NCBI GenBank assembly: GCA_002699165.1
Contig: PABO01000008.1
Location: forward strand, 12,044-68,389
Direction of reading: 5' to 3'
DNA from: Chloroflexota bacterium
GTDB taxonomy: Bacteria > Chloroflexota > Dehalococcoidia > Lucifugimonadales > Lucifugimonadaceae
Length of the DNA: 56,346 bases
Positions 11,437 through 55,910 of this stretch are shown here, piece after piece. A program made the translations under genes and the position numbers. The notes under the pieces are model-generated. The model had not been told where the DNA came from, made no database searches, and was given only the letters and a program-made list of their open reading frames with translations. Numbering within the stretch: position 1 is the stretch's first letter; each line of letters starts with the position of its first letter.

Positions 11437-12012
11437 GTGTTTAAATTATTTCAAAAAAATAACTTTCTTGATGAATTGTGGAAAAACTTTCAAATTCTCT
11501 TAAGTTTAGAATCTGATAAAAAACCTCAAATTCACATATTAAATACTTCTGGACTATTGATTTCTACTCATAGTAAGAATGATTTCACAAAAAATATAAA
11601 AGATAATATTGAATCTATTCTTAACGACGGAGAATCTTCAACAAATACAAATGTTGAAGTGATTGAAGATAGCTCAGATATGTATTGGTTGATACTTAAA
11701 GATAGTGATAGGCATGATTTGTTGTCTTCAAGTTATACAACATTGAATGCATTGCATTCTAACGGTTCTCTTCCAAATATTTTGGCATTAGTAGTAAAAA
11801 TAGAATTTTTTACAGATAATGAAAAAAATATTATTTCCTTAATTTTTAGAGCAGATACAAAAACTATTTATCCTTTTATGCCAATTTCTGAAAATCCTAA
11901 ATCTAGAAATAAAGATTTAGAAATTCTATTTGCCAAATTCTTAAGAAAAAACAAAATCAAGATAGAAAATTCACAAAATAAATGGCTCGGTGTGTGGGGG
12001 ATGCCTTTTTGA
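11437..12012 (+). CDS. hypothetical protein
   Basis: 191-aa ORF with GTG start after an AAAGAG SD. No recognisable motif. 3' end overlaps or abuts the next ORF. Confidence 0.4.
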   Translation: MFKLFQKNNFLDELWKNFQILLSLESDKKPQIHILNTSGLLISTHSKNDFTKNIKDNIESILNDGESSTNTNVEVIEDSSDMYWLILKDSDRHDLLSSSYTTLNALHSNGSLPNILALVVKIEFFTDNEKNIISLIFRADTKTIYPFMPISENPKSRNKDLEILFAKFLRKNKIKIENSQNKWLGVWGMPF

Positions 12013-12551
12013 AAATAGGAATAATTGGAGATATAGAAAAAAAATTTTCACAGAAGATTATAAATATTTACGATGAAAGTTTAGAGTTTACATGTGAATC
12101 GAAGCATGATTTCAGTGGATTGATAATACTATCTAAAGAATTGAATTTTGAAGAAAAAGAACTTATTTATAAGTCAGAAGAATTAAGTGCTCCCATTATT
12201 GGTATTCAAGATGGGTTTGATGGATTAAATTTATTTTTTGGAGGAAATGATAGTACATTAACTTCAGACTCTGTTAATCAACTTTTTCTTAGTCCAGGAG
12301 CAAAACTTTCTCATATTGTAGGAGGCTCTGGATGGGTAAAAGGAGATATTAAATTGGACAAAACAATTTTTAGTAAAGATTTATCTGATGCTTTCTTTTC
12401 TTCAATGATTTCTGATAAAGGTGAGATTTTAGGATTTGAAAAACCAGGAGTTGATTGGCAATTCGGTTTAAGATTTGATGTTTTTTCTCCAGATATTCCA
12501 AGAGGATTTGAAAATATCATAAAGGTTTTTCTTGACAAATGTAATGAATAG
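11982..12551 (+). CDS. class-I glutamine amidotransferase-like (peptidase C26-like) protein lacking the catalytic triad
   Basis: PIIGIQDGFDGLNLFFGG aligns with the P-LGICRG-Q-LN---GG nucleophile elbow (Cys->Gln). WQFGLRFDVF aligns with LGVQWHPE (His/Glu lost). Start ambiguous: ATG 11982, GTG 11994 or TTG 12009. Confidence 0.45.
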   Translation: MARCVGDAFLKIGIIGDIEKKFSQKIINIYDESLEFTCESKHDFSGLIILSKELNFEEKELIYKSEELSAPIIGIQDGFDGLNLFFGGNDSTLTSDSVNQLFLSPGAKLSHIVGGSGWVKGDIKLDKTIFSKDLSDAFFSSMISDKGEILGFEKPGVDWQFGLRFDVFSPDIPRGFENIIKVFLDKCNE

Positions 12552-12576
12552 TAAAAAATACTTGTAAGAAACTCCT

Positions 12577-12596
12577 CGCGCGCTTGCGCGCGCGCG
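12577..12596. repeat. alternating CG tract / GC-only palindrome (CG)3C-TT-(GC)5G, REP-like, between an upstream ORF and gyrA
   Basis: Read directly: cgcgcgcttgcgcgcgcgcg. The 26-bp GC-rich core (12574-12599) has 9/10 matching terminal inverted repeats and is flanked by GAAACT direct repeats at 12568-12573 and 12600-12605. Confidence 0.85.
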
Positions 12597-12641
12597 TGGG
12601 AAACTATAGTTTATTTATAAATAGATAATTGGGGTAAATAT

Positions 12642-15221
12642 ATGGTTGCTGATAATAACTTAGGCGACATTAGAGATGTAAGTATACAAGATGAGATGAA
12701 AAGCTCTTATCTTGACTATGCAATGAGCGTGATAGTTTCTAGGGCGCTTCCTGATGTAAGAGATGGCTTGAAGCCTGTTCAAAGGAGAGTTCTTTATGCA
12801 ATGCATGATCAAGGGATGCGACCAGGATCCTCTTATAAAAAAAGCGCAAGGCTTGTAGGTGAAGTGTTGGGTAAATACCATCCTCATGGGGATAGTTCTG
12901 TTTATGCAGCTCAAGTTAGGATGGCTCAACCTTTTTCAATGAGATACCCATTGGTTGATGGGCAGGGAAATTATGGAAGTGTTGATGGAGATCCTGCAGC
13001 GGCTATGAGGTACACAGAATGTAAACTTTCTCCTATAACTGAATCTTTGCTTAGTGACATTGAAAAAGAGACTGTGGATTGGACTGATAACTTTGATCAA
13101 TCGCTAAAAGAACCATCTGTTTTGCCCGCAATTCTTCCTAATTTGCTAGTAAATGGAGCCTCAGGGATTGCTGTTGGAATGGCTACTAATATCCCTCCTC
13201 ATAATCTAAGTGAAATATGTGATGGAATTGCAATGGTTATAGATGATCCAACATCAAATGTTGATGATTTAATGAAAGTAGTAAAGGGGCCTGATTTTCC
13301 TACCGGAGCAGAAATATGGGGATTGTCTGGAGTAAGGGATGCTTTTGCAACAGGGAGAGGAAGAGTTGTTGTTCAAGCTAAGCATATTCTTGAGGATGTC
13401 AAAAAACAAGAGAGACAAAGAATCGTATTTACCGAAATACCATATCAAGTTAACAAAGCATCCTTAATTATGAAAATTGCGGAAATGATAAAGACTAAAA
13501 AATTAGAAGGTGTATCTGAAGTTAGAGATGAATCTGATAGAAAAGGAATGAGGGTTGTTCTTGAACTAAGAAGAGGGACTTCATCTAGTTTGATACTAAA
13601 TAATTTATATAAACAAACTCAATTGAGATCTTCTTTTTCAGTCAACATGATAGCTCTAGTAGATGGTACTCCACAAATATTAAATTTAAAGCAAACAATT
13701 AACCATTATATTGCTTTTAGAGAAGAAGTTATTCGAAGAAGAGCTGAGTATGAATTGAGACGTGCAAAAGCAAGATTACATGTTTTGGAGGGATTAAGAA
13801 TTGCAATTCAAAATCTTGATAAAGTAATTGAGCTAATTAGGGCTTCCGAAGATGTAGTGGCCGCAAGAAATTCCTTAATGTCAGAATTTAAATTAACTGA
13901 AATTCAATCTCAAGCTATTTTAGATATGCAATTAAGAAGACTTGCCGCCCTAGAAATAGAAAAAATAGAAAATGAATTTAAGGAATTGACAGAGACTGTT
14001 GCTGATTTAGAAGATTTACTTTCGAATCAATCAAGAATATTAAATGTCATAAAAACAGAAACTCTTCAATTGAAAAGAAAATATGGAGAAGATCGAAGGA
14101 CTCTAATAAATGAAACAGATTTAAGGGAATGGAAAAGAGAAGACATGGAACCACATTTAGAAGTAGTTATTACTCTTTCTAAAGGTGGATACGTAAAAAG
14201 AATCCTGTCTAGTACTTATAGAGCACAGCATAGAGGTGGGAAGGGTGTAAAGGGTCAGAGAATGACTAAGGATGGAGACATAGTTCCTTATATCCAAGTT
14301 GCAGACACGCATGACACACTGTTATTTTTTACCGACAAAGGAAGAGTATTTTCATTAAGGGTTTTTGAAATGTCGGCTGACCAGTCAAGAACTTCTAGAG
14401 GTACGCCTATAGCAAACATTATTAATCTTGGTCCTAATGAAAAAGTTACTGCTATGATTACTGTTTCAAGCTTGCTTGAAGATACATATTTAATAATGGT
14501 AACTAAGACAGGTAAAGTTAAGAGAATGCATTTGCCTCTTCTTAGGAATATGAATAAAGCTGGTTTAAACACTTTTAAATTGGGTAAAGATGAGTTAGTT
14601 TCTGTATCTTTGGCTGATGAGAATGAAGATGTAGTAATTGTTACCAGAGAAGGTTTATCAATAAGGTTTCCTTCAGATCAAATTAGACCAACTCAAAGAG
14701 GGGCAGGAGGAATCAGAGGAATTAGAATGAAAACCTCTCAAGATGTAGTTGTCTATAGCGATGTTGTAAATGACGATGGATATTTGTTGATTGTTGGAAG
14801 AAGAGGAAAAGGTAAATTAAGTGCATTTAGACATTACAGATCTCAAAATAGAGGTGGTTCAGGACTATTGACTCTGAAGGTTACTTCAAATACTGGTAAA
14901 GTTGCTGCTGGAGCTATAGTAAGTGAAGAACTTGTAGAAGATTCTGAAGGAAAGTTGTTTTTATTGACAGATAAAGCTCAAGTATTAAGGACAAGGCTAG
15001 GTGAAATACGAAGAACAGGCAGAGTTGCTCAAGGAGTCAAAATTGTTGATCCTGGTCCAGGAGATGCGATTAGCGGTATTCGAGTTCTTGAAGATAGAAG
15101 AAAAGCGAGGAAAGAGGTTGATTTAGAATCACTTTCTATACAATCAGAAAACATTGAGGAATCAGAAAACATTGAGGAATCAGAAAACATTGAGGAATCA
15201 GAAAACTCTGAAGAAAAATAA
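12642..15221 (+). CDS. gyrA: DNA gyrase subunit A
   Basis: [50 protein letters not shown] (active-site Tyr), and a C-terminal beta-pinwheel with a QRGGKGV GyrA-box-like motif. 859 aa. Confidence 0.96.
15144..15215 (+). repeat. 18-bp coding tandem repeat (3 perfect + 1 diverged copy) forming the acidic GyrA tail (SENIEE)3-SENSEE
   Basis: tcagaaaacattgaggaa at 15144, 15162 and 15180. Variant tcagaaaactctgaagaa at 15198. Confidence 0.9.
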
Positions 15222-15683
15222 ATGATTGATGAGATGGACTTTAGAAAATCTTGGAGTTTTTTCCCTACAGGGGTTTCTATACTAGCTGCAAAAAATCAAA
15301 AAGATAGTATTCATGGAATGACGGCTAGCTCAGTTATGAGCATTTCATTAGATCCTCCTATAATAATGGTTTCTATAGGTATAGAAAGATCAATTCTTGA
15401 AAACATTGAAAGAAGTGAATTTGTTTCGGTTTCATTGTTATCAAATAATCAATCAAATATAGCTACCTATTTTTCAAAACCACATGCCTCTAATCATGAT
15501 TTTTTTTATAATAATAATGATGTTTTTTTTATAAAAGATTGTCTTGGTTATTTTTTTTGTAAGAAGAATGATTTTATTAAAGTTGGAGATCATATAGTTT
15601 ATTTTCTTGAAGTGAAAGAAATAGAATTTGATGATAAACCTCCATTGGTTTGGTATAAAGGGAAATTTGAAAATAGTTTATGA
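15222..15683 (+). CDS. flavin reductase-like FMN-binding (split-barrel) protein
   Basis: FRKSWSFFPTGVSILAA...GMTASSVMSISLDPPIIMVSI pattern of the HpaC/flavin reductase family. ATG immediately follows the gyrA stop. Confidence 0.72.
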   Translation: MIDEMDFRKSWSFFPTGVSILAAKNQKDSIHGMTASSVMSISLDPPIIMVSIGIERSILENIERSEFVSVSLLSNNQSNIATYFSKPHASNHDFFYNNNDVFFIKDCLGYFFCKKNDFIKVGDHIVYFLEVKEIEFDDKPPLVWYKGKFENSL

Positions 15684-24802: not shown

Positions 24803-25542
24803 ATAGCCATTCCACCATCTACTCTAATTATTTCACCCGTAATATATCTTGCTTCTTCTTTAGCTAAAAATGCTGCAATTGGAGCAATTTCCTCTGGTTC
24901 TCCAAATCTCTGCATTGGAATCCATGACATAACTTCTTTCTTAACCTTTTCAGATAGAACATTAGTTGTCGCAGTTGAAACATATCCAGGTGCAATGACA
25001 TTTACAGTTATGTTTCTAGTAGCTACTTCTTTTGCAATTGATTTTGTAAAAGAATGAATACCAGCTTTTGATGCAGAATAATTTGATTGACCTATATTCC
25101 CTCTAATACCAACTACAGAAGAAATATTTATTACTCTTCCCCATCTATTTTTTATCATATTATTTATGCATAATTTTGTACAATAAAAAGTCCCCTTAAG
25201 GTTTGTATCAATTACGCGATCAAAATCTTCAGGTTTCATTCTCATAAGTAATGAGTCAGATATAATACCCGCATTATTATATAAAATTTCTATATTACCT
25301 AAGTTTTCTTCTACAAAGTTAATCATTTCCTGAACTTCATTAAGTTTGGATACATTTGCTTTTACAATAATTCCTTCAGAGCCTAATGATTCTACTTCTT
25401 TTAATACTTTCTCCGCATCCTCTTTATGAGAGTTATAGTTTATAGCAATTTTATGACCAGATTCAGCTAGCTTTAAAGCAATAGACCTTCCAATTCCTCG
25501 CGAAGCACCAGTTATTAGAGCTATTCTTGGTAAATCTTCCAT
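24799..25542 (-). CDS. fabG: 3-oxoacyl-ACP reductase
   Basis: ALITGASRGIGRSIA, NNAGI, NISSVVG..GN.GQSNYSASKAG, PGYV. Confidence 0.88.
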   Translation of the reverse strand: MEDLPRIALITGASRGIGRSIALKLAESGHKIAINYNSHKEDAEKVLKEVESLGSEGIIVKANVSKLNEVQEMINFVEENLGNIEILYNNAGIISDSLLMRMKPEDFDRVIDTNLKGTFYCTKLCINNMIKNRWGRVINISSVVGIRGNIGQSNYSASKAGIHSFTKSIAKEVATRNITVNVIAPGYVSTATTNVLSEKVKKEVMSWIPMQRFGEPEEIAPIAAFLAKEEARYITGEIIRVDGGMAI

Positions 25543-28708: not shown

Positions 28709-30655
28709 TTATTCTTTCCTTAATTTAGATGGCCAAAGAGTTACAACTGTCCCTATTAATAGTATAGGGCCTGAAGCCCATATCCACCAAGCTAAGGGGT
28801 TTACTGCAATTCTTACTGTCATACGATTTTCATCAATAAAATCCTTTGGGATTATATATAAGTCTTCTATTGGATTTGTTAGGATACCAGACCTAACACT
28901 TATTTGGTTATAATTTGGGTAATATGAATGCATTGCTTCTATTTTTCCAATAAATTTTTTCTCATTGTTATATATTGAGAAATTTGCCTTTGTAACTGAG
29001 TTACCGTTATTTATTTCTTGATCGATACTTTCAAAATAAATATTGTAATTTTTGAAAGTAACTTCTTCTGAGATACTAATATTAGTATCTATTCTTTGAT
29101 CGTAAAATTTTGTACCTACAACACCAAAAGCTAAAGCTAAAATAGCAAGATGAACTATATATCCTCCATTTCTTCCTCTATTAGAAAATATCATCTTAAT
29201 GAAAGCGGAGAATGGATTTATAGAACCATTCATCCTTGATCTAGTACCACCAATCCACTCCCTAATAATGATTGTAAGAACAAAGAAAATTGAACATATA
29301 GAAACTACAGCGAAAAATTTATTTATGCCAATTAATAATAAATAAATTAAGAAGAATATACTCAATATTATTGAGGGTAAAATTCTTGCAATAGTTGATT
29401 TAATTGTAGTTTTTCTCCAAGATAAAATTGGACCTATGCCCATTAGTAAAATTATTGCTAATAAAATAGGACCTGCGGTTTTATTGAAATAAGGAGCTGA
29501 AACACTAATTTCTGTTCCCGTGAAAATTATAGAAACAACAGGAAATAAAACTCCCCATAAAATAATTAAGGATGTTAAGACCAGTAAAACATTATTTAGT
29601 AAAAAAGCAGTTTCTCTAGATAAGTAAGATTCAATTTTATTTTTGCTTTCTCTAATATTTTTATATTTATATATTATTGTAAATAGACTATAAGACGTCA
29701 TTACTATCATAAATCCTAAAAATAAAAATCCTAATGAAGATGCAGCAAAGGAATGAACAGAAACAACTGGGCCTCCTCTGTTAATAAATGTTCCTAATAA
29801 AGCAAGAATAAATGTCAAAGAAACAAGAATTATATTCCATAATCTAAACATGCCTCTTCTTTCTTCAACCATGATTGAATGGATCAATGCTGTTAATACT
29901 AGCCATGGCATTAATCCTACATTTTCTATTGGATCCCAACTCCAATATCCACCCCAGCCTAAAATTGTATAAGCCCACCAAGCACCTATTAGTAGACCTG
30001 CTCCCAGAAGGGCCCAAGAAATCAAACTCCATATTCTTAGTAATTTGAACCAATTATTTCCTTTTTTATAATCAAATAATGCACCTTGAGAAATAACAAA
30101 AGGGATAGAAATTGATGCTAAACCTGACATTAGTAATGGAGGGTGAATATACATTCCAGGGTGTCTTAGCAAGGGATTAATTCCTTTACCATCGGAATGA
30201 ATTTGATTAGTAACCTCAAAGGGGTTTGCAAAAAAAAGTAAAACAAAAATATAAAAGGAACTTATTAAAGAAAGTATTCCACAAGAATAGGCTAAACTAG
30301 ATTTGATTTTTTCTGAAGAAAAAAATAGCAAGCATCCACTTAGAGTTGCATGAACTAGCAAAATATATAATAAAGAACCTTCATTCCCTGCATAAAAAGC
30401 TACAAAAGTTAAGGCTCTATTCATATCTAAGCTTGAGTTATTAAACACATATATATTAGTGAAATCATTCGATAAAAATAGAGTTATTAATGACACACAA
30501 GAAATAAAGATCATAAGTATTGAAAGATAGTAACTTCTTGATGCACTTCTAATCATTGTTCTGTTTTCTTTATAGAATCCAGATATGAATAATACACTTG
30601 AATATAGGGATAATATAAACCCCAAAATAAGTATGTAGAATCCAAATGTATTCAT
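28709..30655 (-). CDS. ccmF: cytochrome c-type biogenesis heme lyase CcmF
   Basis: WGGYWSWDPIEN (WWD motif), about 15 TM segments, 648 aa. Confidence 0.88.
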   Translation of the reverse strand: MNTFGFYILILGFILSLYSSVLFISGFYKENRTMIRSASRSYYLSILMIFISCVSLITLFLSNDFTNIYVFNNSSLDMNRALTFVAFYAGNEGSLLYILLVHATLSGCLLFFSSEKIKSSLAYSCGILSLISSFYIFVLLFFANPFEVTNQIHSDGKGINPLLRHPGMYIHPPLLMSGLASISIPFVISQGALFDYKKGNNWFKLLRIWSLISWALLGAGLLIGAWWAYTILGWGGYWSWDPIENVGLMPWLVLTALIHSIMVEERRGMFRLWNIILVSLTFILALLGTFINRGGPVVSVHSFAASSLGFLFLGFMIVMTSYSLFTIIYKYKNIRESKNKIESYLSRETAFLLNNVLLVLTSLIILWGVLFPVVSIIFTGTEISVSAPYFNKTAGPILLAIILLMGIGPILSWRKTTIKSTIARILPSIILSIFFLIYLLLIGINKFFAVVSICSIFFVLTIIIREWIGGTRSRMNGSINPFSAFIKMIFSNRGRNGGYIVHLAILALAFGVVGTKFYDQRIDTNISISEEVTFKNYNIYFESIDQEINNGNSVTKANFSIYNNEKKFIGKIEAMHSYYPNYNQISVRSGILTNPIEDLYIIPKDFIDENRMTVRIAVNPLAWWIWASGPILLIGTVVTLWPSKLRKE

Positions 30656-31041
30656 TTTATTTTATCTCTTTTTATATATAAAAATAAAATCACTATAGCT
30701 ATCAGAACAGATATAGCTGGAACTATGTAAGCTATAGAATTAAAGCCATTCATTGAGGGATACGCTAAAACAGAATCTCCATATCTCTTGACGAAATATT
30801 CCTTGATTTCTTCTTCGTTATATCCATCTTCTATTTTTTTCTTAATAGTATCTTTCATATTATTTGCAATCAATGATTGAGATTGGTCTAGTGTTTGACC
30901 ATCACATACAGGACACATTATTTCTTTTTCAAGTTTTATGTATAAATTTTCTTCTAGGTTACTTTGAGAAGCTAGGCAAGCATTAACTAAAAATAAAAAG
31001 AATATAACAAAGCTTATTTTGGATGCTTTATTGTAAATCAT
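30652..31041 (-). CDS. ccmH: cytochrome c-type biogenesis protein CcmH/CycL
   Basis: IMCPVCDGQTLDQSQS (CxxC), RYGDSVLAYP, C-terminal TM helix. Confidence 0.8.
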   Translation of the reverse strand: MIYNKASKISFVIFFLFLVNACLASQSNLEENLYIKLEKEIMCPVCDGQTLDQSQSLIANNMKDTIKKKIEDGYNEEEIKEYFVKRYGDSVLAYPSMNGFNSIAYIVPAISVLIAIVILFLYIKRDKIK

Positions 31042-31546
31042 CCCAGATATAATTTACGATTGCTTTAATTTCATCTTCAGTAAGCATATTATCGTATGCT
31101 GGCATAAGTCCTGCTCCACCTTTTATAAAAACTACAGCATTATCTTTAGATAGTTGAGATGTTAATAAGTTAGCTGGATTTTTATGTTTTTCTCCTGTAA
31201 CTTTGTACCAGTAATTTTCTTCATCAGTTATTTTACTAGCTGCTGGCCCCATTCCATTACCATTGTCTCCATGACAAAAAGCACAATTTACAGTATATAA
31301 ATATTGTGCATCATAATTATCTGAATTGTCAGAATCCATATCTAGATTATTTTCATTCCCTAATTCAGCAAATGTGACACTATCTGGGTGCGCTGGTACC
31401 CTTGGAGGTTCTTGATACTTATTAGCTTGGTTGTAATGCATCTCACTAAATATTTCTACAGGATATGTATTATTTTGCTGTACACATGCTGTAAGCATTA
31501 GAAATAGAAACGAAAAAAGAATTATTATTTTTTTATTTATTTTCAT
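31028..31546 (-). CDS. actE: alternative complex III monoheme cytochrome c subunit ActE (lipoprotein-like)
   Basis: Lipobox-like LMLTAC, single CAFCHG heme motif, MPAY distal Met region. Positioned after actD. Confidence 0.72.
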   Translation of the reverse strand: MKINKKIIILFSFLFLMLTACVQQNNTYPVEIFSEMHYNQANKYQEPPRVPAHPDSVTFAELGNENNLDMDSDNSDNYDAQYLYTVNCAFCHGDNGNGMGPAASKITDEENYWYKVTGEKHKNPANLLTSQLSKDNAVVFIKGGAGLMPAYDNMLTEDEIKAIVNYIWDDLQ

Positions 31547-31575
31547 ATATTTAATTTTACTCTTTTAAGCCTCTT

Positions 31576-32076
31576 TTAAGCTTCTTTTATTTCTTCTGAA
31601 CCAGTTTTAGATAAAATTTCTTTTGCTTTATTTAAGTCTGAATCTTCAACTGATATTACAACTCCAATATAACCTTCAGTAATTCTAGGGTCATAAACAC
31701 CTGGACTTATATTAGGTAACCTTGATTCAAATATAATTCCTATTACACTAAAAATCACCGCCGATAACATAGTCATCTCATACATAATAATTAACATAGC
31801 AAAGATAGAGAGAATTGGTTTACCTCCAGTGATTAGAGGATATGCTAATTGAGTAGCAGTTGTTAGGAATAGAGATAAGCTAAATCCCACTATTGCTCCA
31901 AATGCAGGAAATCTAAATAATCTATGTTGTGGCACATACTCACCAAATGCTCCTTCCGGATATGGAGTTCCAGTTAGAACATCAAATGTACCTTGTTCAA
32001 AACCTCCATCTTTAAATCCATCCATTGCATCTGCAGCATCATTTGGATCTATGTATAAACCTAATAAGCTTTTCAT
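31576..32076 (-). CDS. actD: alternative complex III subunit ActD (DUF3341)
   Basis: 166 aa with a soluble N-terminus then two TM helices. Position between actC and actE. Confidence 0.72.
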   Translation of the reverse strand: MKSLLGLYIDPNDAADAMDGFKDGGFEQGTFDVLTGTPYPEGAFGEYVPQHRLFRFPAFGAIVGFSLSLFLTTATQLAYPLITGGKPILSIFAMLIIMYEMTMLSAVIFSVIGIIFESRLPNISPGVYDPRITEGYIGVVISVEDSDLNKAKEILSKTGSEEIKEA

Positions 32077-32079
32077 TTT

Positions 32080-33471
32080 TTACTCCTCTTCCTCTCTAAA
32101 TATAGTAGGAACTGTTGCGCGACCTATTTTTATATCATCGCTAAAAACTTCACTTTCTTTTTGTTCAAACAATGGAACTAGGGGAAAAACCCTGGAAAAT
32201 ATTAACATTAATAATGTAACCCAGCAAAATGACCAAAAAAGAACATACCATTCAAACCAGCTAGGAGAGTATGCTTCCCAAGTAAACACAAATGGAGTTC
32301 TTCGGGCTAATCCTGGAACAATAATTAAGAATCTTTCAAGCCACATACCTATATTTACCAAAATTGAACTCCAGAACATTAGTGCAATATTTGTTCTTAT
32401 TCTTTTAAAAAGCCACATTGGGACAGGTAATATGTAACCAGTTAACAAGAATGTTAAAAATAGCATATTCCATGGATATTGAAAAATTTGCATTTCCCTT
32501 AATGCAATTTCAGGTGCATCTAATCCATATAAAGCAAATAATAGCTCTAAAAATGTAAACCCTAACCATGCAGTTGCAACTACAGTCAATAATCTTGCAA
32601 GTGCATCAAAGTGCTCTGGTCTGATAAATTCATTCCATCCCCACCCCCATCTCATTAATGCCATCATAGTAACTACTGCAGAAACCCCTGAATGAACAGC
32701 TCCAATAACAAAATAAGGTGCAAAAATTGTTGAGTGCCAACCTTCAACGGCAGTAGTAACAGCAAAGTCCCAAGAAACGATTGAATGAACTGAAACGAAA
32801 ATTGGAAGCATTAAGGCTGACAATAGAATTCCTCCCACTACTTGCATTTTCCATTGTCGTGGATTCCCTCTCCATCCCAGTGCAAGAATAGTATAAAATC
32901 CTTTTCGAAAGCCAGTAGTTCTATCTCTTAAAACTGCCAAATCTGGCAGAAGAGCTACAAACAAGAAAAGGGTAGAACCTGTTAAATAAGTAGAAATAGC
33001 TATAGGATCCATAAATAACGGAGATCTTATATTTGGCCAGATTCCTCTTGAAGCATCATATGGTATTAACCAATAAACTATTCTCCAAGTTCTTCCTGCG
33101 TGTATAAGAGGGAACACTAAAGCTGTGGCTAATGAAAAAATAGTTAATATTTCAGCTGCCCTAGTTACGGGTCTTCTCCATTCAGCTTGAGTTAGCCTAA
33201 GTATAGCTGAAATCATTATTCCAGCATGAGATATCCCAACCCAAAAAACGAATGTGGTGATATAAAGCCCCCAATAGATAGGTCTATTAAGGCCTGTTAC
33301 TCCAAGTCCATACTTAATTTGTATTCCAAATAATATGAATCCAATAATTACAAAAAATGCCAATACTGATACTAAGTAAGGCCACCATCTAGGCGTTTGT
33401 AAAGTTCCATTTAAAAGTACTGAGTTTGTATACTCTTGACTTAATCTATTTTTATTATCTCTTTGTTGCAT
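32080..33471 (-). CDS. actC: alternative complex III quinol-interacting membrane subunit ActC (NrfD/PsrC fold)
   Basis: NRPIYWGLYITTFVFWVGISHAGIMISAILRLTQAEWRRPVTRAAEILTIF is the typical ActC/NrfD N-terminal signature. About 10 TM helices. Confidence 0.85.
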   Translation of the reverse strand: MQQRDNKNRLSQEYTNSVLLNGTLQTPRWWPYLVSVLAFFVIIGFILFGIQIKYGLGVTGLNRPIYWGLYITTFVFWVGISHAGIMISAILRLTQAEWRRPVTRAAEILTIFSLATALVFPLIHAGRTWRIVYWLIPYDASRGIWPNIRSPLFMDPIAISTYLTGSTLFLFVALLPDLAVLRDRTTGFRKGFYTILALGWRGNPRQWKMQVVGGILLSALMLPIFVSVHSIVSWDFAVTTAVEGWHSTIFAPYFVIGAVHSGVSAVVTMMALMRWGWGWNEFIRPEHFDALARLLTVVATAWLGFTFLELLFALYGLDAPEIALREMQIFQYPWNMLFLTFLLTGYILPVPMWLFKRIRTNIALMFWSSILVNIGMWLERFLIIVPGLARRTPFVFTWEAYSPSWFEWYVLFWSFCWVTLLMLIFSRVFPLVPLFEQKESEVFSDDIKIGRATVPTIFREEEE

Positions 33472-33483
33472 AATACTCCTCTA

Positions 33484-34869
33484 TTAATCTGGCTTTGCAA
33501 CCCTAACACCATGAGCTTTTATATATTTTACAGGCTTAGCTAATAAATTAAATTGTTGTATTTCCCATATGCCAATAAAAGGAACTACTCTTGAAATAAT
33601 AATTACAATTAAAAATACTGAGCTAACAGCGCCAACTAAAACTAATATATCCCATATATCTGGATATAAAGTTTTAGGTATGATTTTCAACCATTTATCA
33701 TGAATGAGAGAAGGGTCTACTGACCAAGCAGGTACATATAGTCTTATTCTTTCAAAAAATACCCCTAAAATAGCTAAGATAGCACCATAAAAAGGTCCAT
33801 TTACCGAGTTTCTAACTTTGTTCCATATCAACCACCACCAAGGAAAAACAAAACTAAATAACATTCCTAAAATAAATACATACATCATAGGACCTCTGAT
33901 TAATAAATCTAACCATGCTGTATCTGACATTGATCTTCCATACCAAAAAACAATAAAAGCTGAATAAAAAAAGTATATCCACATTAGACTTGCTGCAAAC
34001 ATGAGTCTACCCAATGCCCAGAATTGGTTTATAGTAATGTAATTTTCATAACCAAAATATTTTCTGACTATCCAAGCAACAATTATTACAGAAGCAATTC
34101 CCCCTTGTATTCCTCCCATTGCATGAGCCATAGGATAGATTGCATCTCTCCAGCCTGGTACCATACTCAAGCTTAGATCTATTGAAATTAATGTATGAAC
34201 AAAGATAAGGGTAAAGAAGTAGAATGTACTCATAATTCCAATTCTCATTCGAAGTGTACTCCATTGAACTGTTGATCCAACAAATCCACTTGCTAAAAAC
34301 TTTGCTATTCTTTGTTTAGTTCCATTCGAATTATCTCTCATTGTTGCGAAATCTGGTAGAGCAGAGGAATAAAGCAAAGCAAGCCCAACTATTGCTAACA
34401 TAACTAAGCTCAGGGTATCCCAAAAATGAGGACTATAGTTTGGGGCTTCAAACCAAATAGATCTTCTCCTAGCTCCATCAACCATAAGTGGTGGTAAAAC
34501 CCAAAGTAATGGGATCATAATAATTACATTGATAATTCCAACTGCTCCAATTATGTGGGCAATTCTTGATATAGGGCGAGCCCAATTTGCTTTTGCTATA
34601 AGTGGGGCAACTGCTACCATTGGAGCACCAGCAGTTGTACTAAGAATAAATGCTAAAATCGCAGCTATATATCCCCATTGAGTTTGATCATCACTTTCTA
34701 AAAACAACTTACCTAAAAGTCCAACTATTCCTAACAAACTTAATAGAGAAAGAACCCAAATACTTTTCTTAATAAATTTCCCTCCTCTGGAGGTACTAGA
34801 AATAAGTTCATTTTTTACAACTTTGGGATCACTAGGAGGCCAATGAAAATGTTCTTCGTTAGTGCTCAT
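33484..34869 (-). CDS. second NrfD-like polytopic membrane subunit (ActF-like), in a non-canonical position before actC
   Basis: 461 aa, about 10 TM, same general architecture as ActC. 11-nt overlap with actB2. Confidence 0.6.
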   Translation of the reverse strand: MSTNEEHFHWPPSDPKVVKNELISSTSRGGKFIKKSIWVLSLLSLLGIVGLLGKLFLESDDQTQWGYIAAILAFILSTTAGAPMVAVAPLIAKANWARPISRIAHIIGAVGIINVIIMIPLLWVLPPLMVDGARRRSIWFEAPNYSPHFWDTLSLVMLAIVGLALLYSSALPDFATMRDNSNGTKQRIAKFLASGFVGSTVQWSTLRMRIGIMSTFYFFTLIFVHTLISIDLSLSMVPGWRDAIYPMAHAMGGIQGGIASVIIVAWIVRKYFGYENYITINQFWALGRLMFAASLMWIYFFYSAFIVFWYGRSMSDTAWLDLLIRGPMMYVFILGMLFSFVFPWWWLIWNKVRNSVNGPFYGAILAILGVFFERIRLYVPAWSVDPSLIHDKWLKIIPKTLYPDIWDILVLVGAVSSVFLIVIIISRVVPFIGIWEIQQFNLLAKPVKYIKAHGVRVAKPD

Positions 34870-35611
34870 TAATCTTTGCTTTCTCTCCTAATTTTTTATC
34901 TTTATATGGATCAACTGTGGCTAAATATACTACATTTGGATTAGTATTTAATTGTGGCATTAGTGAATATTTTCTATCACTTTTTGCTAATATTGAAACT
35001 TTACTTTCTGGGTCATTGAGGTCTCCAAAAGTTATTGCACCAGTAGGACATGCTTCTTGACATGCAGTTTTTATTTCTCCATCTTCTAATTGGTCTCCAG
35101 CATTCCTTGTACCCCTTCTAATCCTTTGGATACACATACTACATTTTTCCATAATTCCTCGGCTTCTGATTGTAACGTCTGGATTGAGATGATTTCTTAT
35201 TTCTTCAGGCCAAGTAGGTTCCCAATAATTGAACATTCTTACAATATATGGGCAACCGTTAGCACAATATCTTGTTCCAACACATCTATTATATATTTGA
35301 ACATTTAATCCTTCATTATTATGATATGAGGCGTATACAGGGCACACTGGTTCACATGGCGCGTTTTCACAATGTTGACACATTATAGGAATAAATCTTG
35401 CTTTGACATTAGGGAATTCTCCCTCCCAATATCTTTCTATTCTAATCCAAGACATAACTCTGCCACGTTCAAATTTATTTTGATCATTTAAGGGAATATT
35501 ATTTTCAACCTGACAAGCTGTAACGCATCCACTGCACCCATTACATTTATCTGTATCTATTACCATCCCCCAGCTTCTATTTTTTTCAGCTACCATAACA
35601 TTCCTCTTCAA
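34859..35611 (-). CDS. actB2: alternative complex III iron-sulfur subunit ActB2 (4-cluster ferredoxin-like)
   Basis: CNGCSGCVTAC, CQHCENAPCEPVC, CVGTRYCANGC, CSMC, CQEACPTGA cluster motifs. Confidence 0.86.
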   Translation of the reverse strand: MKRNVMVAEKNRSWGMVIDTDKCNGCSGCVTACQVENNIPLNDQNKFERGRVMSWIRIERYWEGEFPNVKARFIPIMCQHCENAPCEPVCPVYASYHNNEGLNVQIYNRCVGTRYCANGCPYIVRMFNYWEPTWPEEIRNHLNPDVTIRSRGIMEKCSMCIQRIRRGTRNAGDQLEDGEIKTACQEACPTGAITFGDLNDPESKVSILAKSDRKYSLMPQLNTNPNVVYLATVDPYKDKKLGEKAKINEH

Positions 35612-35643
35612 CTTTAATTAGAATTTTTTTCTTTATTGTCATC

Positions 35644-37965
35644 TCAATGATCATCTCCATGGTCATCTCCATGGTCATCTCCATGACTTTCTCTGAAATT
35701 TATTGATTCTTGATATTTATGATGATTTTCTTCCTCTGCTTCGTGAGCTGTTTGTCCAGGTTTTACTACAAGAACAGGTATTCCAGGCTCAACAGGGAAT
35801 GCTGTAACATCTCCTTCAAATTTCGGCATTTTTTCATTTCCACCAGCTCTTTTCAATGAAACTTTTGTTGATGCCCATGCAAATGAACCAGATTCTTCAT
35901 CAGATAGTCCTGATAAAATTTTAAGGACATTTGAACCTCTTTTTTCAGAATATCTTCCACCTTTTTCCGTTCCTTGTCCAGTTGGGACACAAAGCGTGCC
36001 AGGTTGAACAGCAGGATGAGGATATGCAAGACATTTTATTTCTCCTGAATCAGATTTCAAGTAAATAATATCACCTTCTTTGATATCCATTTCTTCAGCT
36101 TGATGGCTATTTATTTCTACCCATGTTTGCCACGCTGCAGTTGTTATGCCCTCATAAGCTTCTTGAGCTAATGGTACATTGGCATATTTCCCATCACCTA
36201 AGTTATTTGTAAAAGGGATAAGAAAAAACTCATCACCATAATTAGCATCTGTTTCTGAAAAGAGATTTTTTCCTTCAAAATCAAAAGGGTTTTTTAGTCT
36301 TATTTTTTTTTGGTCTGCAGTTACTGCTTTATTCCAGTATCCGCCTCTTTGTTGTACTCCATTCATGAAAGAGTTTTTGTCAGTTGCAATTACTGACCCT
36401 GAACTATTTGATTCATTAAATTCATTATCAAAAACCTTTTTGACTAAAGATTTATTGGATCCGCTTATAGAGGGTTCTAAATCAAGCAATGTATCAACAT
36501 AACTTATTGCTCCCGAAGCACCAGGCCCTTCTTTAACAACAACTGGCTGTTGTAGGGAAACGGTTAGATATCCAGGAAGTGGATTTGGAATTTCAGAGCC
36601 CCACTCCTCAAAAAAAGTAGTATCAGGAATTACAATATCAGATGCATTTAATGTTTCATTCATCATGCTTCCAAATGAAATAACATTCTCTACATTTTTT
36701 AGCGCACCTAGCACATCTAGAGAATTAGGCATTGAATATGCGAGATCTACACCTTTTATGATTACTGTATCAACATATCCTGCTCTCCATTGAGCAATCT
36801 CATCTTGCCAATCCTTTAAGTTATTAGACTGATTTGATCCTCCAATAAATTCTTTTTCTACTTCAGGGTTAAGTATTACTCCACCCGTCTTTCCAATAGA
36901 CCCGAGAAGTATATTTAATGCGAAAACTACATAAGTATTGAATTTTCCATTAGTATAGGCAGAAGTAGAACCTCCTGCTAAAACTATACTTTTACCTTTA
37001 GAAATTTTATGTGCTATTTCTATGATTTTGTCTTTAGATACACCTGTTCTTTTTTCAACATCTTCGGGATTATATCCAAATTCAACTTTACCATTTGGAA
37101 ATTTATTAATGAATTCATCGATCTGAGTCTCTGGAACCAATTTTTCTTTAATTATTACATTTGCTATTGATAAAGCTATATCTGATTCTGTTCCAGGATA
37201 TGGGGATAACCATAAGTCAGCATTCGCAGATGTTAGTGAAAATCTTGGTTCTACATGTCCGATGAAGCCTCTGTTTCCAGATCTTAATTCTCCAAACGCA
37301 GTCCCATATTGTGCAGGTGAAACCCAGTTTTCTATCCAGTCGGCTCCAAAAGATAGCACGTTATCTGCATTAGCTATATCAAAATGAGGGATTTCATTAG
37401 TTTCAAAAAGTTCAAATAAAGCCTCATGAAGGTTTGTTTGATCTAAGGCTTCATATGTGAGGTATCTTCCTCCTCTACTCTCAGCAAACTTTTGAGATAT
37501 CCAACCTTCTGAGCTTCTTGTAGGATTAGAAACTACAACTATTTTCTTACCTTTTGCAGTAGCTTCTATTAAGTATTTGTTCATTTCATCAGCTGAAGTC
37601 TTTGCTAGTATTCCATCTTTAGATCTTCTCAATCTTGGTTCATGTAATCTATCAGGATTATAATGAAGCTGAAGAGCAAAATCTAAATTAGATCGTGCGC
37701 CACCCCTATTTACAGGATGATCAGGATTCCCTTTTAGCTTCTTAATTCTTCCTTCAAGAATTCTAACTAGAACTCCATCTCCAGAAGCACCCTCTGACCA
37801 TGAGGTAGCATACCATGAATCTATTCCTCTAACTAGGTCTTCAGGCATATCAACGGGACTTTGTACAATTAGCTCTTTTTCAGGAATTGAACACGCAGCA
37901 AATATAACAGCTCCAGCTGCAGATTTTCCACTTAGTGATAAAAATTCTCTCCTGTTAATTTTCAT
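35644..37965 (-). CDS. actB1: alternative complex III molybdopterin-oxidoreductase-like subunit ActB1 (Tat signal, lipobox, no FS0 cysteines)
   Basis: MKINRREFLSL twin-Arg signal followed by IFAAC. Complex-iron-sulfur-molybdoenzyme fold length (773 aa) without the N-terminal CxxCxxxC cluster, as expected for ActB1. Confidence 0.85.
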   Translation of the reverse strand: MKINRREFLSLSGKSAAGAVIFAACSIPEKELIVQSPVDMPEDLVRGIDSWYATSWSEGASGDGVLVRILEGRIKKLKGNPDHPVNRGGARSNLDFALQLHYNPDRLHEPRLRRSKDGILAKTSADEMNKYLIEATAKGKKIVVVSNPTRSSEGWISQKFAESRGGRYLTYEALDQTNLHEALFELFETNEIPHFDIANADNVLSFGADWIENWVSPAQYGTAFGELRSGNRGFIGHVEPRFSLTSANADLWLSPYPGTESDIALSIANVIIKEKLVPETQIDEFINKFPNGKVEFGYNPEDVEKRTGVSKDKIIEIAHKISKGKSIVLAGGSTSAYTNGKFNTYVVFALNILLGSIGKTGGVILNPEVEKEFIGGSNQSNNLKDWQDEIAQWRAGYVDTVIIKGVDLAYSMPNSLDVLGALKNVENVISFGSMMNETLNASDIVIPDTTFFEEWGSEIPNPLPGYLTVSLQQPVVVKEGPGASGAISYVDTLLDLEPSISGSNKSLVKKVFDNEFNESNSSGSVIATDKNSFMNGVQQRGGYWNKAVTADQKKIRLKNPFDFEGKNLFSETDANYGDEFFLIPFTNNLGDGKYANVPLAQEAYEGITTAAWQTWVEINSHQAEEMDIKEGDIIYLKSDSGEIKCLAYPHPAVQPGTLCVPTGQGTEKGGRYSEKRGSNVLKILSGLSDEESGSFAWASTKVSLKRAGGNEKMPKFEGDVTAFPVEPGIPVLVVKPGQTAHEAEEENHHKYQESINFRESHGDDHGDDHGDDH
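35647..35685 (-). repeat. 12-bp coding tandem repeat giving the C-terminal H(GDDH)3 tail of ActB1
   Basis: atgatcatctcc / atggtcatctcc / atggtcatctcc / atg on the plus strand, read directly. Confidence 0.9.
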
Positions 37966-53031: not shown

Positions 53032-53385
53032 ATTATAAGTTTTTCTAGAGAAGAGCCGGTTTATGCAATAGGTATAGTCTCTAAGATTGTAGGTTTGCAT
53101 CAACAGACCTTAAGAAATTATGAGAGATGGAATTTAGTTATACCTTTTCGTTCACCTGGTGGAACAAGATACTATTCGATTGTAGATATTGAAAAAATTG
53201 AAAAAGTTAAGGATTGGATTGAAAAATTTGGTATCAATAGAGCTGGCATTGAAATAATTACAGATTTACTAAAAGAGATTAATGAACTAGAGAAAAAAAA
53301 TAATTTTCTCGAGTCAGAGTTAATAAGGTATAAGAGCAGGGGTTCTATGATGGAATTACCTGAAAATAATAGGAGGCAATTATGA
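53032..53385 (+). CDS. hspR: MerR-family heat-shock repressor HspR-like (start non-canonical/uncertain)
   Basis: EEPVYAIGIVSKIVGLHQQTLRNYERWNLVIPFRSPGGTRYYS matches the HspR N-terminal wHTH, followed by a coiled-coil tail. The first canonical start (TTG 53095) would delete helix 1-2. ATT 53032 / ATA 53035 follow an AAAGG SD. Confidence 0.65.
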   Translation: MISFSREEPVYAIGIVSKIVGLHQQTLRNYERWNLVIPFRSPGGTRYYSIVDIEKIEKVKDWIEKFGINRAGIEIITDLLKEINELEKKNNFLESELIRYKSRGSMMELPENNRRQL

Positions 53386-55910
53386 TTTCCACTGAGATTT
53401 GGTCGAGAGAAATTATGGATAAAGAACTTATTGATGTTTTTGATCAGGCTGATCATTTAGCAACAAGTGCTTATAGAGAAGAATTTTTTACTATTAATCA
53501 TCTTATGTTATCGCTATTAAGAACACCATCCGTGATTAAAATCTTAAGTAATTTAGTTACAGCTTCTTCCTTAAAAAACTGGGAAACAGAACTTATGAAA
53601 GGATTTAAGGATAATAAATTCCCTATAATTGAAATTGCTTATGAAAGCTTAATGCAAAAACTGTATTCTTTATCTCTAGATATTGCAAACACCACTCAGA
53701 GTGAAAAAATTAAAATTATACATGTTTTGTTAGGGATTGCAGAATTATCTAATAATGCTTCTATAACAAGAGTTATTAATAGAAGGTCTTTACAAGAATA
53801 TCGAACAACAAATAATATTACTTTTGATTTATTTCTAAGTAATAGACTAACTGTAGATAATGTGCAATTTGCTTATTTAGTTGCTAATCCTAACTCTAAA
53901 TTAAAAACTAAAAGTGAAGAAGTTGAATTTTCAGAAAAAAAAGATCAAGAATCTGAAAATAATTCAAAATATGAATTTTTAGATAAATATTCTATTGATT
54001 TGACTAGTCTTGCAAAGCAAAACTTGATTGATCCTATCATAGGTAGAGATTCAGAAATAAAAAAAGTACAACAAATTCTCTTAAGAAGAACTAAAAATAA
54101 CCCTGTATTAATTGGTGATGCTGGAGTGGGTAAAACGGCGATAGCTGAGGGGCTAGCCTTAAATATCATTGGAGGTAATGTTCACCCTTTTCTAAAAGAC
54201 AAAAGAGTGTTGTCTCTACAATTAGGACAGCTATTAGCAGGTACAGGTGTAAGGGGAGAATTTGAAGAAAGAATGCAGACAATAATTAAAGAAATGGAAG
54301 ATTCAAATGGGGAGATCATTTTGTTTATTGATGAAATCCATACTGTAGTTGGTGCTGGTTCTGGTGGGGGTGCATTAGATGCATCAAATATGATGAAACC
54401 GGCTCTTGCTCGCGGTAAATTACAAACTATAGGAGCCACAACTCCCGATGAATTTAGAAAATATATTGAATCCGACCAAGCTTTGGAAAGAAGATTTTCT
54501 CCGGTTTTCATAAATGAACCAACAAAAAAAGCATCAATTAAAATGCTTCAGGGTTTAAGATACAAATATGAAAAACATCATGATTTGAAAATTTCTGATG
54601 AAGCAATTGAATCAGCTGTAAATTTATCTGATAGATATATAAAAAATCGTTTTTTACCTGATAAGGCTATAGATTTAATGGATGAGTCATTATCAAAAGT
54701 AAAAATAGAAAATCCGCTAACTCCTGATCAAATTTCTGATATAGAAAATGAAATAGATCAATTAAAAGAGGAGGAAAATAAGCTATTTCAAGAGGGAAAA
54801 AAGATTGAATCAGAAGAAGTAGTTGAAAAAAGATATCAAAAAGAAGAAAATTTAAAACTTCAAAGAGAACAATGGGGATTTAGTGAAAAACAAATAGAGA
54901 TAGTCGAACCCAAGCATATAGCAAAGGTTATTTCTGAAAAAACAGGAATTCCTATTGATAATTTAATTCAGAGTGAAGCAAAAAAACTACTAAAATTAGA
55001 GGAAAAATTACATAAGAGAGTTATAGGTCAATCTAAAGCTGTTGAGGGGATTTCAAATGCTATTAGAAGAAGTAGGGCAGGATTACAAGATCCCACTAGA
55101 CCAATAGGTTCTTTTATATTTTTAGGGCCTACTGGTGTTGGAAAAACAGAGCTTGCAAAATCATTAGCTGAATTTTTGTTTGATGATGAAAATAGCATAG
55201 TTCGAGTTGATATGTCTGAGTATAGAGAAAGCTATTCAATGGCAAGGCTAATTGGTGCACCTCCAGGATATGTGGGATATGACGAAGCAGGCCAGTTAAC
55301 AGAATCTGTAAGGCGTAATCCTTATAGTGTTATATTATTTGATGAGGTAGAGAAAGCTCACCCAGATATATTTAATGTTTTACTTCAAGTATTGGATGAT
55401 GGAAGATTAACAGATGGGCAAGGCAGGACTGTAGATTTTACAAATACAATTATTATCATGACTTCAAATTTGGGTAGTGATTTTGTAAGTAAAGAATCTA
55501 TAGGCTTTATGAATAATTCAGATAAAAAGATTGAAGAACAGCATAATAATGTATCTGAATCTTTGAAATCACATTTTAGACCTGAGTTCTTAAATAGAAT
55601 TGATGAAATAATTATTTTTGAATCTTTGACTAAGCAAAATTTGTTACTAATAGTTGATAAAGTACTCGATGATCTTTCAGAAAAATTAAAATCAAAAAAT
55701 CTTCAAATAAAAATAAATAAGAAAGTTAAAGAATTTATAGCTAGTAAAGGATTTGATAAATATTATGGTGCAAGACCATTAAGAAGATTATTACAAAAAG
55801 AAGTAGAGAATAAAATTTCTAAAATGATTATTTCTAAAGAAATTAAAAATGGTGATGTTTTAAAACTTACTTTAAGAGAAAATGAAATAATAATTAATAT
55901 AAAAAAATAA
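53382..55910 (+). CDS. clpC: Clp/Hsp100 double-AAA+ ATPase, ClpC-like (short M-domain, IGF ClpP-docking loop)
   Basis: Walker A GDAGVGKTAIAEGLA and GPTGVGKTELAKSLA. Only about 70 aa between NBD1 end (DKAIDLMDES) and VEPKHIAKVISEKTGIP. KESIGFMN tripeptide loop in NBD2. ATGA overlap with hspR-like. Confidence 0.85.
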   Translation: MISTEIWSREIMDKELIDVFDQADHLATSAYREEFFTINHLMLSLLRTPSVIKILSNLVTASSLKNWETELMKGFKDNKFPIIEIAYESLMQKLYSLSLDIANTTQSEKIKIIHVLLGIAELSNNASITRVINRRSLQEYRTTNNITFDLFLSNRLTVDNVQFAYLVANPNSKLKTKSEEVEFSEKKDQESENNSKYEFLDKYSIDLTSLAKQNLIDPIIGRDSEIKKVQQILLRRTKNNPVLIGDAGVGKTAIAEGLALNIIGGNVHPFLKDKRVLSLQLGQLLAGTGVRGEFEERMQTIIKEMEDSNGEIILFIDEIHTVVGAGSGGGALDASNMMKPALARGKLQTIGATTPDEFRKYIESDQALERRFSPVFINEPTKKASIKMLQGLRYKYEKHHDLKISDEAIESAVNLSDRYIKNRFLPDKAIDLMDESLSKVKIENPLTPDQISDIENEIDQLKEEENKLFQEGKKIESEEVVEKRYQKEENLKLQREQWGFSEKQIEIVEPKHIAKVISEKTGIPIDNLIQSEAKKLLKLEEKLHKRVIGQSKAVEGISNAIRRSRAGLQDPTRPIGSFIFLGPTGVGKTELAKSLAEFLFDDENSIVRVDMSEYRESYSMARLIGAPPGYVGYDEAGQLTESVRRNPYSVILFDEVEKAHPDIFNVLLQVLDDGRLTDGQGRTVDFTNTIIIMTSNLGSDFVSKESIGFMNNSDKKIEEQHNNVSESLKSHFRPEFLNRIDEIIIFESLTKQNLLLIVDKVLDDLSEKLKSKNLQIKINKKVKEFIASKGFDKYYGARPLRRLLQKEVENKISKMIISKEIKNGDVLKLTLRENEIIINIKK

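Follow-up and report, generated by a model that had tools for sequence, protein, structure and literature searches.

Among the closest known counterparts of the element reported here are the relaxation-stimulated gyrase promoters (gyrA, gyrB, gyrBA) of E. coli, Mycobacterium and Streptomyces. Their determinants are reported, in work ascribed to Menzel & Gellert, Straney et al. and Unniraman & Nagaraja, to reside in the -10/discriminator in E. coli or in distal elements in mycobacteria. Alternating CG is the best former of Z-DNA, with CA/TG second, and negative supercoiling drives the B-Z transition. In this study, we analysed a 56,346-nt stretch of DNA from a low-GC marine Chloroflexota bacterium of the class Dehalococcoidia (contig PABO01000008.1 of assembly GCA_002699165.1, positions 12,044 to 68,389 of the forward strand), which is called the window and is numbered from its first base. 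The promoter of its gyrA gene contains an alternating-CG run, cgcgcgcTTgcgcgcgcgcg, at positions 12577-12596. Like the determinants of the known gyrase promoters, the tract is a cis feature at a gyrase-gene promoter, whereas an alternating-CG tract has not been described for those promoters and none was found in the literature search. Nor did the full-text search return any paper in which Z-DNA tracts and gyrase promoters are connected. As a rule, relaxation of the DNA induces gyrase genes, and the logic that the tract would be expected to share with their promoters is homeostatic negative feedback on supercoiling (PMC5055605).

We propose, at a little short of an even chance, that a supercoiling-driven B-to-Z switch over the -35 hexamer and spacer gives relaxation-stimulated transcription of gyrA. 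With the Z-DNA torsional sensors on record the tract shares a sequence class (alternating CG with CA/TG variants) and a position inside a promoter or upstream of it, in DNA where negative supercoils generated by transcription gather. Those sensors are (CG)n and (TG)n stretches inserted artificially into E. coli plasmids, and TG repeats close to eukaryotic promoters. In contrast to them, the gyrA tract is natural, bacterial, phylogenetically conserved, confined to one gene and short, and its formation of Z-DNA is a prediction. The nearest natural prokaryotic precedent known to us is the Halobacterium bop promoter, which is reported, in work attributed to Yang et al. in 1996, to respond to a gyrase inhibitor and to contain, between its upstream element and its start site, a short box of alternating purines and pyrimidines. 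That promoter is archaeal, belongs to an unrelated gene and is said to be stimulated by supercoiling, whereas inhibition is proposed for the gyrA tract. The gyrA promoter would be a gyrase promoter of the supercoiling-sensitive type with an unprecedented, phylogenetically supported determinant of the Z-DNA type.

An earlier inspection of the window by sequence alone (hereafter the sequence-only reading) had called the tract REP-like. The repetitive extragenic palindromic (REP) sequences and bacterial interspersed mosaic elements (BIME) of enterobacteria are likewise GC-rich imperfect intergenic palindromes with a gyrase link in the literature, and the 26-bp core of the tract (12574-12599) is a palindrome of this kind, REP/BIME palindromes being roughly 35 bp. 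However, REP/BIME number in the hundreds, are dispersed and are found mostly in transcribed 3' regions, whereas the gyrA tract is single-copy, gyrA-specific and located in a promoter. Membership of the REP family was therefore not sustained, as no dispersed copies appeared in the window or in the viral and metagenome scans. No Rfam family matched anywhere in the window at the gathering threshold, and no transfer RNA or transfer-messenger RNA match was obtained. The tract is not a REP/BIME, a miniature inverted-repeat transposable element (MITE), a classic terminator or a known RNA family.

The tract and the gyrA promoter

The run consists of CGCGCGC (12577-12583), TT (12584-12585) and GCGCGCGCGCG (12586-12596), and the sequence from 12560 to 12620 is acttgtaaGAAACTCCTCGCGCGCTTGCGCGCGCGCGTGGGAAACTatagtttattt. 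The features of the promoter region are listed below. Groups A to E are groups of relatives that are characterised in the next section, and MAG stands for metagenome-assembled genome.

12568 to 12573, + strand: left GAAACT, a chance repeat outside the element, present only in strains of the window's species
12574 to 12580, + strand: CCTCGCG, conserved left boundary of the tract, at the left edge in groups A, B, C and E and in a Thermoflexus MAG
12577 to 12583, + strand: (CG)3C, upstream alternating arm, about -44 to -38, invariant in group A save for an extra CG unit
12584 to 12589, + strand: TTGCGC, -35 hexamer, 17 nt before TAnnnT in groups A, B and E
12585 to 12598, + strand: TG(CG)5TG, perfect purine/pyrimidine alternation over 14 bp, taking in the -35 and the upstream half of the spacer
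12598 to 12603, + strand: GGGAAA, conserved spacer motif of groups A, B, C and D, preceding the -10 by 3-4 nt
12608 to 12613, + strand: TAGTTT, probable -10, aligning with TAGTGT, TAGAAT and TACGGT in groups B-E
12620 to 12624, + strand: probable gyrA transcription start region, from 5' ends of metatranscriptome contigs
12642 to 15221, + strand: gyrA coding sequence, 859 aa, with Pfam DNA_topoisoIV (E 2.9e-163) and DNA_gyraseA_C repeats

The window has a GC content of 30.0% and is depleted of CpG, with 482 CG versus 1450 GC dinucleotides. By our arithmetic the observed/expected ratio of CpG is about 0.4 window-wide, and the tract alone holds 9 of the 482 CpGs. No alternating CG/GC run of 6 nt or more exists in the 56 kb other than CGCGCGC and GCGCGCGCGCG, and TG(CG)5TG together with (CG)3C forms the best-scoring alternating segment of the window. 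The 26-nt core contains 22 G+C, the highest count in any other 26-nt stretch being 17. No second copy of the 20-mer was found in the window with up to three mismatches, and none in 100 shuffles. The sequence-only reading had held that no other G/C run of more than about 6 nt existed in the window. This is true of alternating CG, but five pure G/C runs of 7-8 nt, none of them alternating, occur elsewhere. Its coordinates, the 9/10 inverted repeat formed by CCTCGCGCGC (12574-12583) and GCGCGCGTGG (12590-12599), and the pair of GAAACT copies at 12568-12573 and 12600-12605 all agreed with the sequence when it was read again. A further CCTCGCG at 25496 is a chance match inside a coding region. An assembly artefact or chimera, which the sequence-only reading had named as a finding that would refute it, was ruled out, because nine contigs from separate metagenome assemblies, all encoding the same GyrA, agree at every base of the 90-nt intergenic region. 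Many sequencing runs also contain the region, 20 public DNA runs completely.

TTGCGC and TAGTTT are 17 nt apart, within the 17±1 bp spacing of sigma-70-type hexamers, and this architecture is common to groups A, B and E. Each hexamer matches its consensus at 3 of 6 positions (TTGACA in the case of the -35), which is below the scan threshold, so that a simple promoter scan did not list the pair. The TATA at 12605-12608, ahead of TAGTTT, is invariant in group A. The sequence-only reading had proposed TTGCGC-N15-TATAGT (12605-12610) as the promoter overlapped by the tract. The tract indeed spans a conserved promoter, but TATAGT has a 15-nt spacer and is not aligned with the -10 of the other groups. 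N17-TAGTTT is favoured, because the relatives align with it and the RNA 5' ends at 12622-12624 fit it better. A sigma-54 or extracytoplasmic function (ECF)-type reading of TGGGAAA was dropped, as spacing and downstream element do not fit. A general promoter motif of the lineage was rejected as well, GGGAAANNNTANNNT occurring just once in the 56 kb.

The 5' ends of gyrA contigs in metatranscriptomes, which are an approximate measure of transcription start, were located as follows.

12622: runs X25 (depth 92) and X29
12624: run X28
12633: run X30
12634: run X27, with the adapter directly abutting
12645 or further downstream: seven further runs

The ends at 12622, 12622 and 12624 are 9-11 nt past the last base of TAGTTT. 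None of the gyrA mRNA contigs among the metatranscriptome contigs started upstream of 12622, which shows the tract to be promoter DNA and not 5' untranslated region (UTR). With a start near 12620, the tract occupies about -44 to -24. The tract was upstream of the gyrA 5' ends in every case, in the window organism as well as in group B. A lone contig of run X27 (151 nt, low depth, 12484-12634) spans the tract, and stems from read-through or from DNA. The ends of the second class (12633/12634) fall inside GGGG (12631-12634), the Shine-Dalgarno sequence of gyrA, whose ATG is at 12642.

Conservation and specificity of the tract

Group A comprised the window and ten species-level genomes (L010-L018 and L080) of 29-31% GC, with GyrA sequences 79-94% identical to that of the window. 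The nearest species-level genomes were marine MAGs labelled Chloroflexota, Dehalococcoidia or SAR202. A 27-nt core, CGCGCGCTTGCGCGCGCGCGTGGGAAA, was identical in all 11 species and was located directly upstream of gyrA in each, and both of its flanks were unalignable among them. At the four-fold degenerate sites of gyrA, 54-59% differed between the window and each of the ten other species, which amounts to saturation. By our arithmetic, neutral evolution to such a distance would leave 27 positions identical in even one pair with a probability of about 1e-10. The fact that 27 nt are identical while four-fold sites are saturated argues that the core is under very strong purifying selection, in a genome that is otherwise shedding G, C and CpG.

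When metagenome contigs were added, group A was represented by 30 distinct 150-nt haplotypes, in which the invariant string was C(T/A)CGCGCGC-TTGCGCGCGCGCGTGGGAAA-n-TATA. The invariance of the left arm and of TATA is unbiased, because neither was part of the metagenome search pattern. Only two variants were seen, namely an extra CG unit in the left arm of some lineages and a T-to-A change that turns CCTC into CCAC. The latter makes the inverted repeat perfect and has at least two independent origins (in the lineages of L015 and L017, T being retained by their sister species), a pattern that would be expected of quasipalindrome template-switch mutation. Its recurrence means that the arms can pair during replication; it does not make the pairing functional.

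Homologous gyrA promoters of higher-GC Dehalococcoidia were found by anchoring on GGGAAA-N3/4-TAnnnT, and were grouped as follows.

Group B: SAR202-like, 45-60% GC, including Ca. Lucifugimonas marina (L037); CCTCGCG-(alternating CG/CA/TG, variable length)-TTGCGCG-YRCRYR-TGGGAAAgcgTAGTGT
Group C: about 60% GC; CTCGCG...alternating...CGCGAGcGGGAAAggcgTAGAAT
Group D: L048-L081, about 55% GC; GGGAAAgttTAGAAT kept, alternating tract absent
Group E: about 60-62% GC; CCTCGCGCGCGCGCGaTTGCGCGCaggcgcg-...-TACGGT

Arrangements resembling those of groups B, C and E were also present in L050 and in the Thermoflexus MAG (L083). At the 14 positions of TG(CG)5TG, group B reads TGCGCG-YRCRYR-TG. The tract measures 14-22 bp in the window and up to about 45 bp in relatives, and the distance from CCTCGCG to the TTG of the -35 is 10, 16, 21, 23, 35 or 36 nt, depending on the lineage. 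In 42 of 78 species loci of about 8.5 kb, from genomes of 29-65% GC, the best alternating CG/CA/TG segment of the locus was within the 260 nt upstream of gyrA, as compared with about 2.6 of the 78 expected by length alone. The 78 loci are not independent of each other by descent, but they involve no fewer than five sequence groups that cannot be aligned with one another.

To separate alternation from sequence, substitutions among 26 distinct group B sequences were counted along a minimum spanning tree. Purine and pyrimidine alternated in 90% of the tract steps of these 26 sequences, versus about 50% in the flanks (19-sequence alignment), and the interior of the tract contained no fixed motif. 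The ratio of transitions to transversions was 82:32 in the tract versus 170:152 in the non-coding flanks (Fisher p 4e-4). Counted over all pairs of the earlier 19-sequence alignment, it was 627:231 in the tract and 426:581 and 496:614 in the flanks. The excess of transitions and the 90% of alternating steps indicate that alternation itself, and not the sequence or a fixed motif, is what selection has conserved across lineages. The tract of group A is short and built of CG only, the cheapest dinucleotide, while the longer tracts of group B tolerate CA/TG, as the energetics would require.

The long gyrA leaders of higher-GC relatives hold conserved complementary segments, such as TTTTCGCG...CGCGAAAA in group D (L054-L088) and TTGCGCGCC-agtt-GGCG in group B. 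Such segments point to a structured 5' UTR, which the short leader of the window organism would lack.

Copies of the tract were sought in a viral collection and in metagenomes. The five viral matches to the 20-mer were all in DNA of 60-69% GC with unrelated flanks, and were rejected as mobile copies because they are high-GC chance hits. A single metagenome scan with TTGCGCGYRCRYRTGGGAAA returned 100 loci. Among these, 43 were upstream of gyrA (26 in low-GC and 17 in higher-GC DNA), together with one truncated copy; 55 were high-GC chance matches, often within coding sequence (e.g. reading LRARVGK), and two had odd contexts (L154 and L167). In low-GC DNA, 27 of 29 matches were upstream of gyrA and two were in unrelated contexts. 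In the data searched, the element is restricted to gyrA, and no second class of genes carries the motif. The search for copies and for the locus in relatives that the sequence-only reading had recommended thus led, as run, to a gyrA-specific cis element that overlaps the promoter and is strongly selected. In L167 (about 100-330, motif-oriented), CTTGCGCGCGCGCGTGGGAAATATAG is found in AT-rich DNA that does not adjoin gyrA, and the motif is flanked by CTTAAAACT tandem repeats and a near-consensus TTGACA-N17-TATAAT promoter.

A candidate B-Z switch and its rivals

The element starts with CCTCGCG, continues as an alternating CG-rich segment through TTGCGC and the upstream half of the 17-bp spacer, and ends with TGGGAAA before TAGTTT. 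We presume that the tract may act as a sensor of torsional stress. Under high negative supercoiling, the alternating segment would pass from B-DNA to left-handed Z-DNA, and the Z-form would deform the -35 and spacer and absorb local supercoils, so that gyrA transcription would fall. Upon relaxation, the segment would return to the B-form and the promoter would become active. The outcome would be homeostatic, relaxation-stimulated transcription, as for the gyrase genes of other bacteria. The B-Z transition, its effect on RNA polymerase and the direction of the regulation are what we infer. A B-Z element appears to be the best-fitting mechanism because the conserved property, purine/pyrimidine alternation, is the one that defines the requirement for Z-DNA. 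The sequence-only reading had suggested a supercoiling sensor of either the B-Z or the cruciform type. The first of these two forms probably fits the conserved alternation, whereas support for a cruciform was inconsistent among relatives.

The energy of the B-Z transition was estimated with a simplified model of our own, using dinucleotide and junction energies attributed to Ho et al. 1986 and Peck & Wang 1983. In this rough model, the 22-bp segment of the window would begin to flip at a sigma of about -0.035. The gyrA tracts of 17 lineages (16-32 bp, differing in sequence and GC content) had modelled onsets of -0.033 to -0.039, a uniformity that is partly a property of the model. The best other site of each locus had a modelled onset of -0.041 to -0.055, and the group D promoters one of about -0.05. 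Methylation of CpG or GCGC, if the organism has such, would favour Z-DNA further.

Besides the share of the model in the uniform onsets, several points speak against the proposed switch. In E. coli plasmids, steady-state unconstrained supercoiling is reported to flip only longer (CG)n, and a tract of 14-22 bp is short; the switch might need transcription-driven local supercoiling. The invariance within group A is absolute, with no CA/TG variant, and the non-alternating edges CCTCGCG and TGGGAAA are conserved; both facts fit a sequence-specific protein too. Group D, a large clade, keeps GGGAAA-N3-TAGAAT and has no alternating tract, which means that the tract is not universally required. Judged by conserved peptide motifs, gyrB and topA are absent from the window and from all fetched loci, so that their promoters offer no comparison. 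In a group B genome of the L037 type, a sharp gyrA 5' end was found in three runs at 2954, which is 25 nt past TAGTGT, and a contig of the upstream gene crosses the tract and stops at 2929, with a 24-nt uncovered gap before 2954. This 5' end and the read-through contig make the group B promoter a tentative assignment there, and suggest that the leader is processed or that a second promoter, GGGAAA-N17-TAACTT, is used.

The tract might alternatively be the operator of a sequence-specific regulator of gyrA, either a repressor or an activator overlapping the -35, with alternation as a by-product. We consider this unlikely, while giving it real weight, as a 27-nt core without a single difference among 11 species whose synonymous sites are saturated is what an operator would show. 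The conservation of CCTCGCG and TGGGAAA in several groups, the inverted repeat CCTCGCG...CGCG(T/A)GG formed by the tract ends, and the retention of GGGAAA even in the tract-less group D are also in its favour. However, the interior sequence differs between groups, and the edge-to-edge distance varies by up to 26 bp, which is not a multiple of the helical turn. The excess of transitions and the 90% alternation point to selection on alternation, no second site was found elsewhere in the window or the metagenome scans, and no gene for a DNA-binding protein was seen among the eight genes scanned around gyrA. Given the variable interior and spacing and the inconsistent hairpins, neither a rigid dimeric operator nor a conserved hairpin explains the pattern, whereas selection for a CG-rich tract that alternates explains it. 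A hairpin could function as a cruciform extruded by supercoiling, or as an RNA stem-loop closing the 3' end of the upstream operon, whose transcript it would terminate, insulate or stabilise, and we judge either form improbable. The 9/10 inverted repeat of the window yields a DNA hairpin of -11.9 kcal/mol (z-score -2.0), the RNA fold of the intergenic region reaches -22.5 kcal/mol, and in L036 (37 bp, z -8.7), L015 and L017 the palindrome is perfect. In one group B metatranscriptome a contig of the upstream gene crosses the tract and ends 15 nt past it, and the one read-length contig of the window organism crosses it as well. But in L045, L041, L043, L024 and L035 the tract folded no better than dinucleotide shuffles, and an alignment fold of 24 group B sequences gave only -7.3 kcal/mol with no compensatory pair. 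A conserved hairpin was thus rejected on heterogeneous single-sequence DNA folds and on the lack of covariation in the alignment fold. The perfect palindromes are better explained by template-switch corrections of a quasipalindrome, given the independent origins of the T-to-A change, and 90% alternation is not required by a hairpin. Extrusion of short GC-rich cruciforms is also kinetically unfavourable. No T-run follows the tract, as the sequence-only reading had remarked and a terminator scan bore out; a stem is present, followed by GGGAAACTATAG, and no terminator-like site was found. In group B, a T-run sits between the upstream stop codon and the tract. The palindrome of L036, CTTTCCCACGCGCACGCGaCGCGTGCGCGTGGGAAAG (about 2860-2900, upstream of gyrA), carries the inverted repeat into the GGGAAAG motif.

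That gyrase itself might autoregulate its promoter by binding or cleaving a strong site in the tract seems still less probable. GC-rich palindromic BIME-2 sites bind gyrase in E. coli, and the evidence in the window that would favour such a site is the position at the gyrA promoter and the specificity for gyrA. The gyrase sites on record extend over about 130 bp, REP sites, unlike the tract, are dispersed and multi-copy, and the variation in tract length argues against a fixed protein-DNA geometry. The sequence-only reading had offered a last alternative, the footprint of a small MITE- or REP-like mobile palindromic element with GAAACT as target-site duplication. GAAACT does stand on both sides of a GC core with terminal inverted repeats. 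The left copy, however, is confined to strains of the window's species and is missing in L010-L018, L080 and the other group A haplotypes, all of which have the core, so that the supposed duplication is a chance repeat. The right copy belongs to a conserved motif, GGGAAAnTATA. Relatives showed no empty site; in them the element occupies the same locus in several diverged groups and the same place across the whole class, and it is single-copy in the 56 kb, at gyrA. With the viral hits being high-GC chance matches and the non-gyrA metagenome matches unrelated and nearly all high-GC, we regard a mobile-element footprint as already refuted by the comparative data and give it practically no credence.

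In the wider form of the proposed B-Z switch, a natural switch in the -35/spacer of a gyrase promoter would be conserved over much of the Dehalococcoidia, and possibly in the wider Chloroflexota, and torsional state would set gyrase synthesis without a protein sensor. We hold this wider form tentatively and lean somewhat towards doubting it. To our knowledge, the known regulatory examples of Z-DNA are synthetic inserts or eukaryotic. If true, the switch would be the first phylogenetically supported regulatory role for Z-DNA in bacteria, and would touch both the long-standing question of its regulatory function there and the incompletely explained question of how gyrase promoters sense relaxation. 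An alternating tract has been kept at exactly one promoter, that of the enzyme which sets supercoiling, past synonymous saturation and against a strong AT bias and CpG depletion, and relatives have swapped its sequence and retained its alternation. The element is small (about 50 bp), and a cultured SAR202 relative, Ca. Lucifugimonas marina, makes the idea testable. If the tract were an operator instead, it would define a gyrA-specific regulator in an abundant and poorly studied ocean lineage.

Genes around gyrA and elsewhere in the window

The gene that precedes gyrA is described by the following feature.

11982 to 12551, + strand: gene co-directional with gyrA, 189 aa, no Pfam hit, conserved synteny

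The C-terminal coding end of this gene (FLDKC... / ...FVERAGF) is recognisable upstream of gyrA in many groups, which indicates that its synteny with gyrA is old. A PspAB-family gene (PF22742) overlaps the 189-aa gene by 31 nt (window 11437-12551).

The acidic C-terminal tail of E. coli GyrA modulates DNA wrapping. The 3' end of gyrA in the window (15142-15229) contains a perfect 18-nt tandem repeat of 3.6 copies that codes for an acidic tail, and the length of GyrA at its C-terminal end varies among relatives. Further downstream, from 28709 to 37965, the window holds a gene for CcmF (cytochrome c maturation) and a cluster encoding a molybdopterin-oxidoreductase-like protein and two NrfD-like membrane proteins. 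The molybdopterin-oxidoreductase-like and NrfD-like genes may encode a respiratory module of the alternative-complex-III type. A ClpB/ClpC-type AAA+ chaperone is encoded at 53382-55910.

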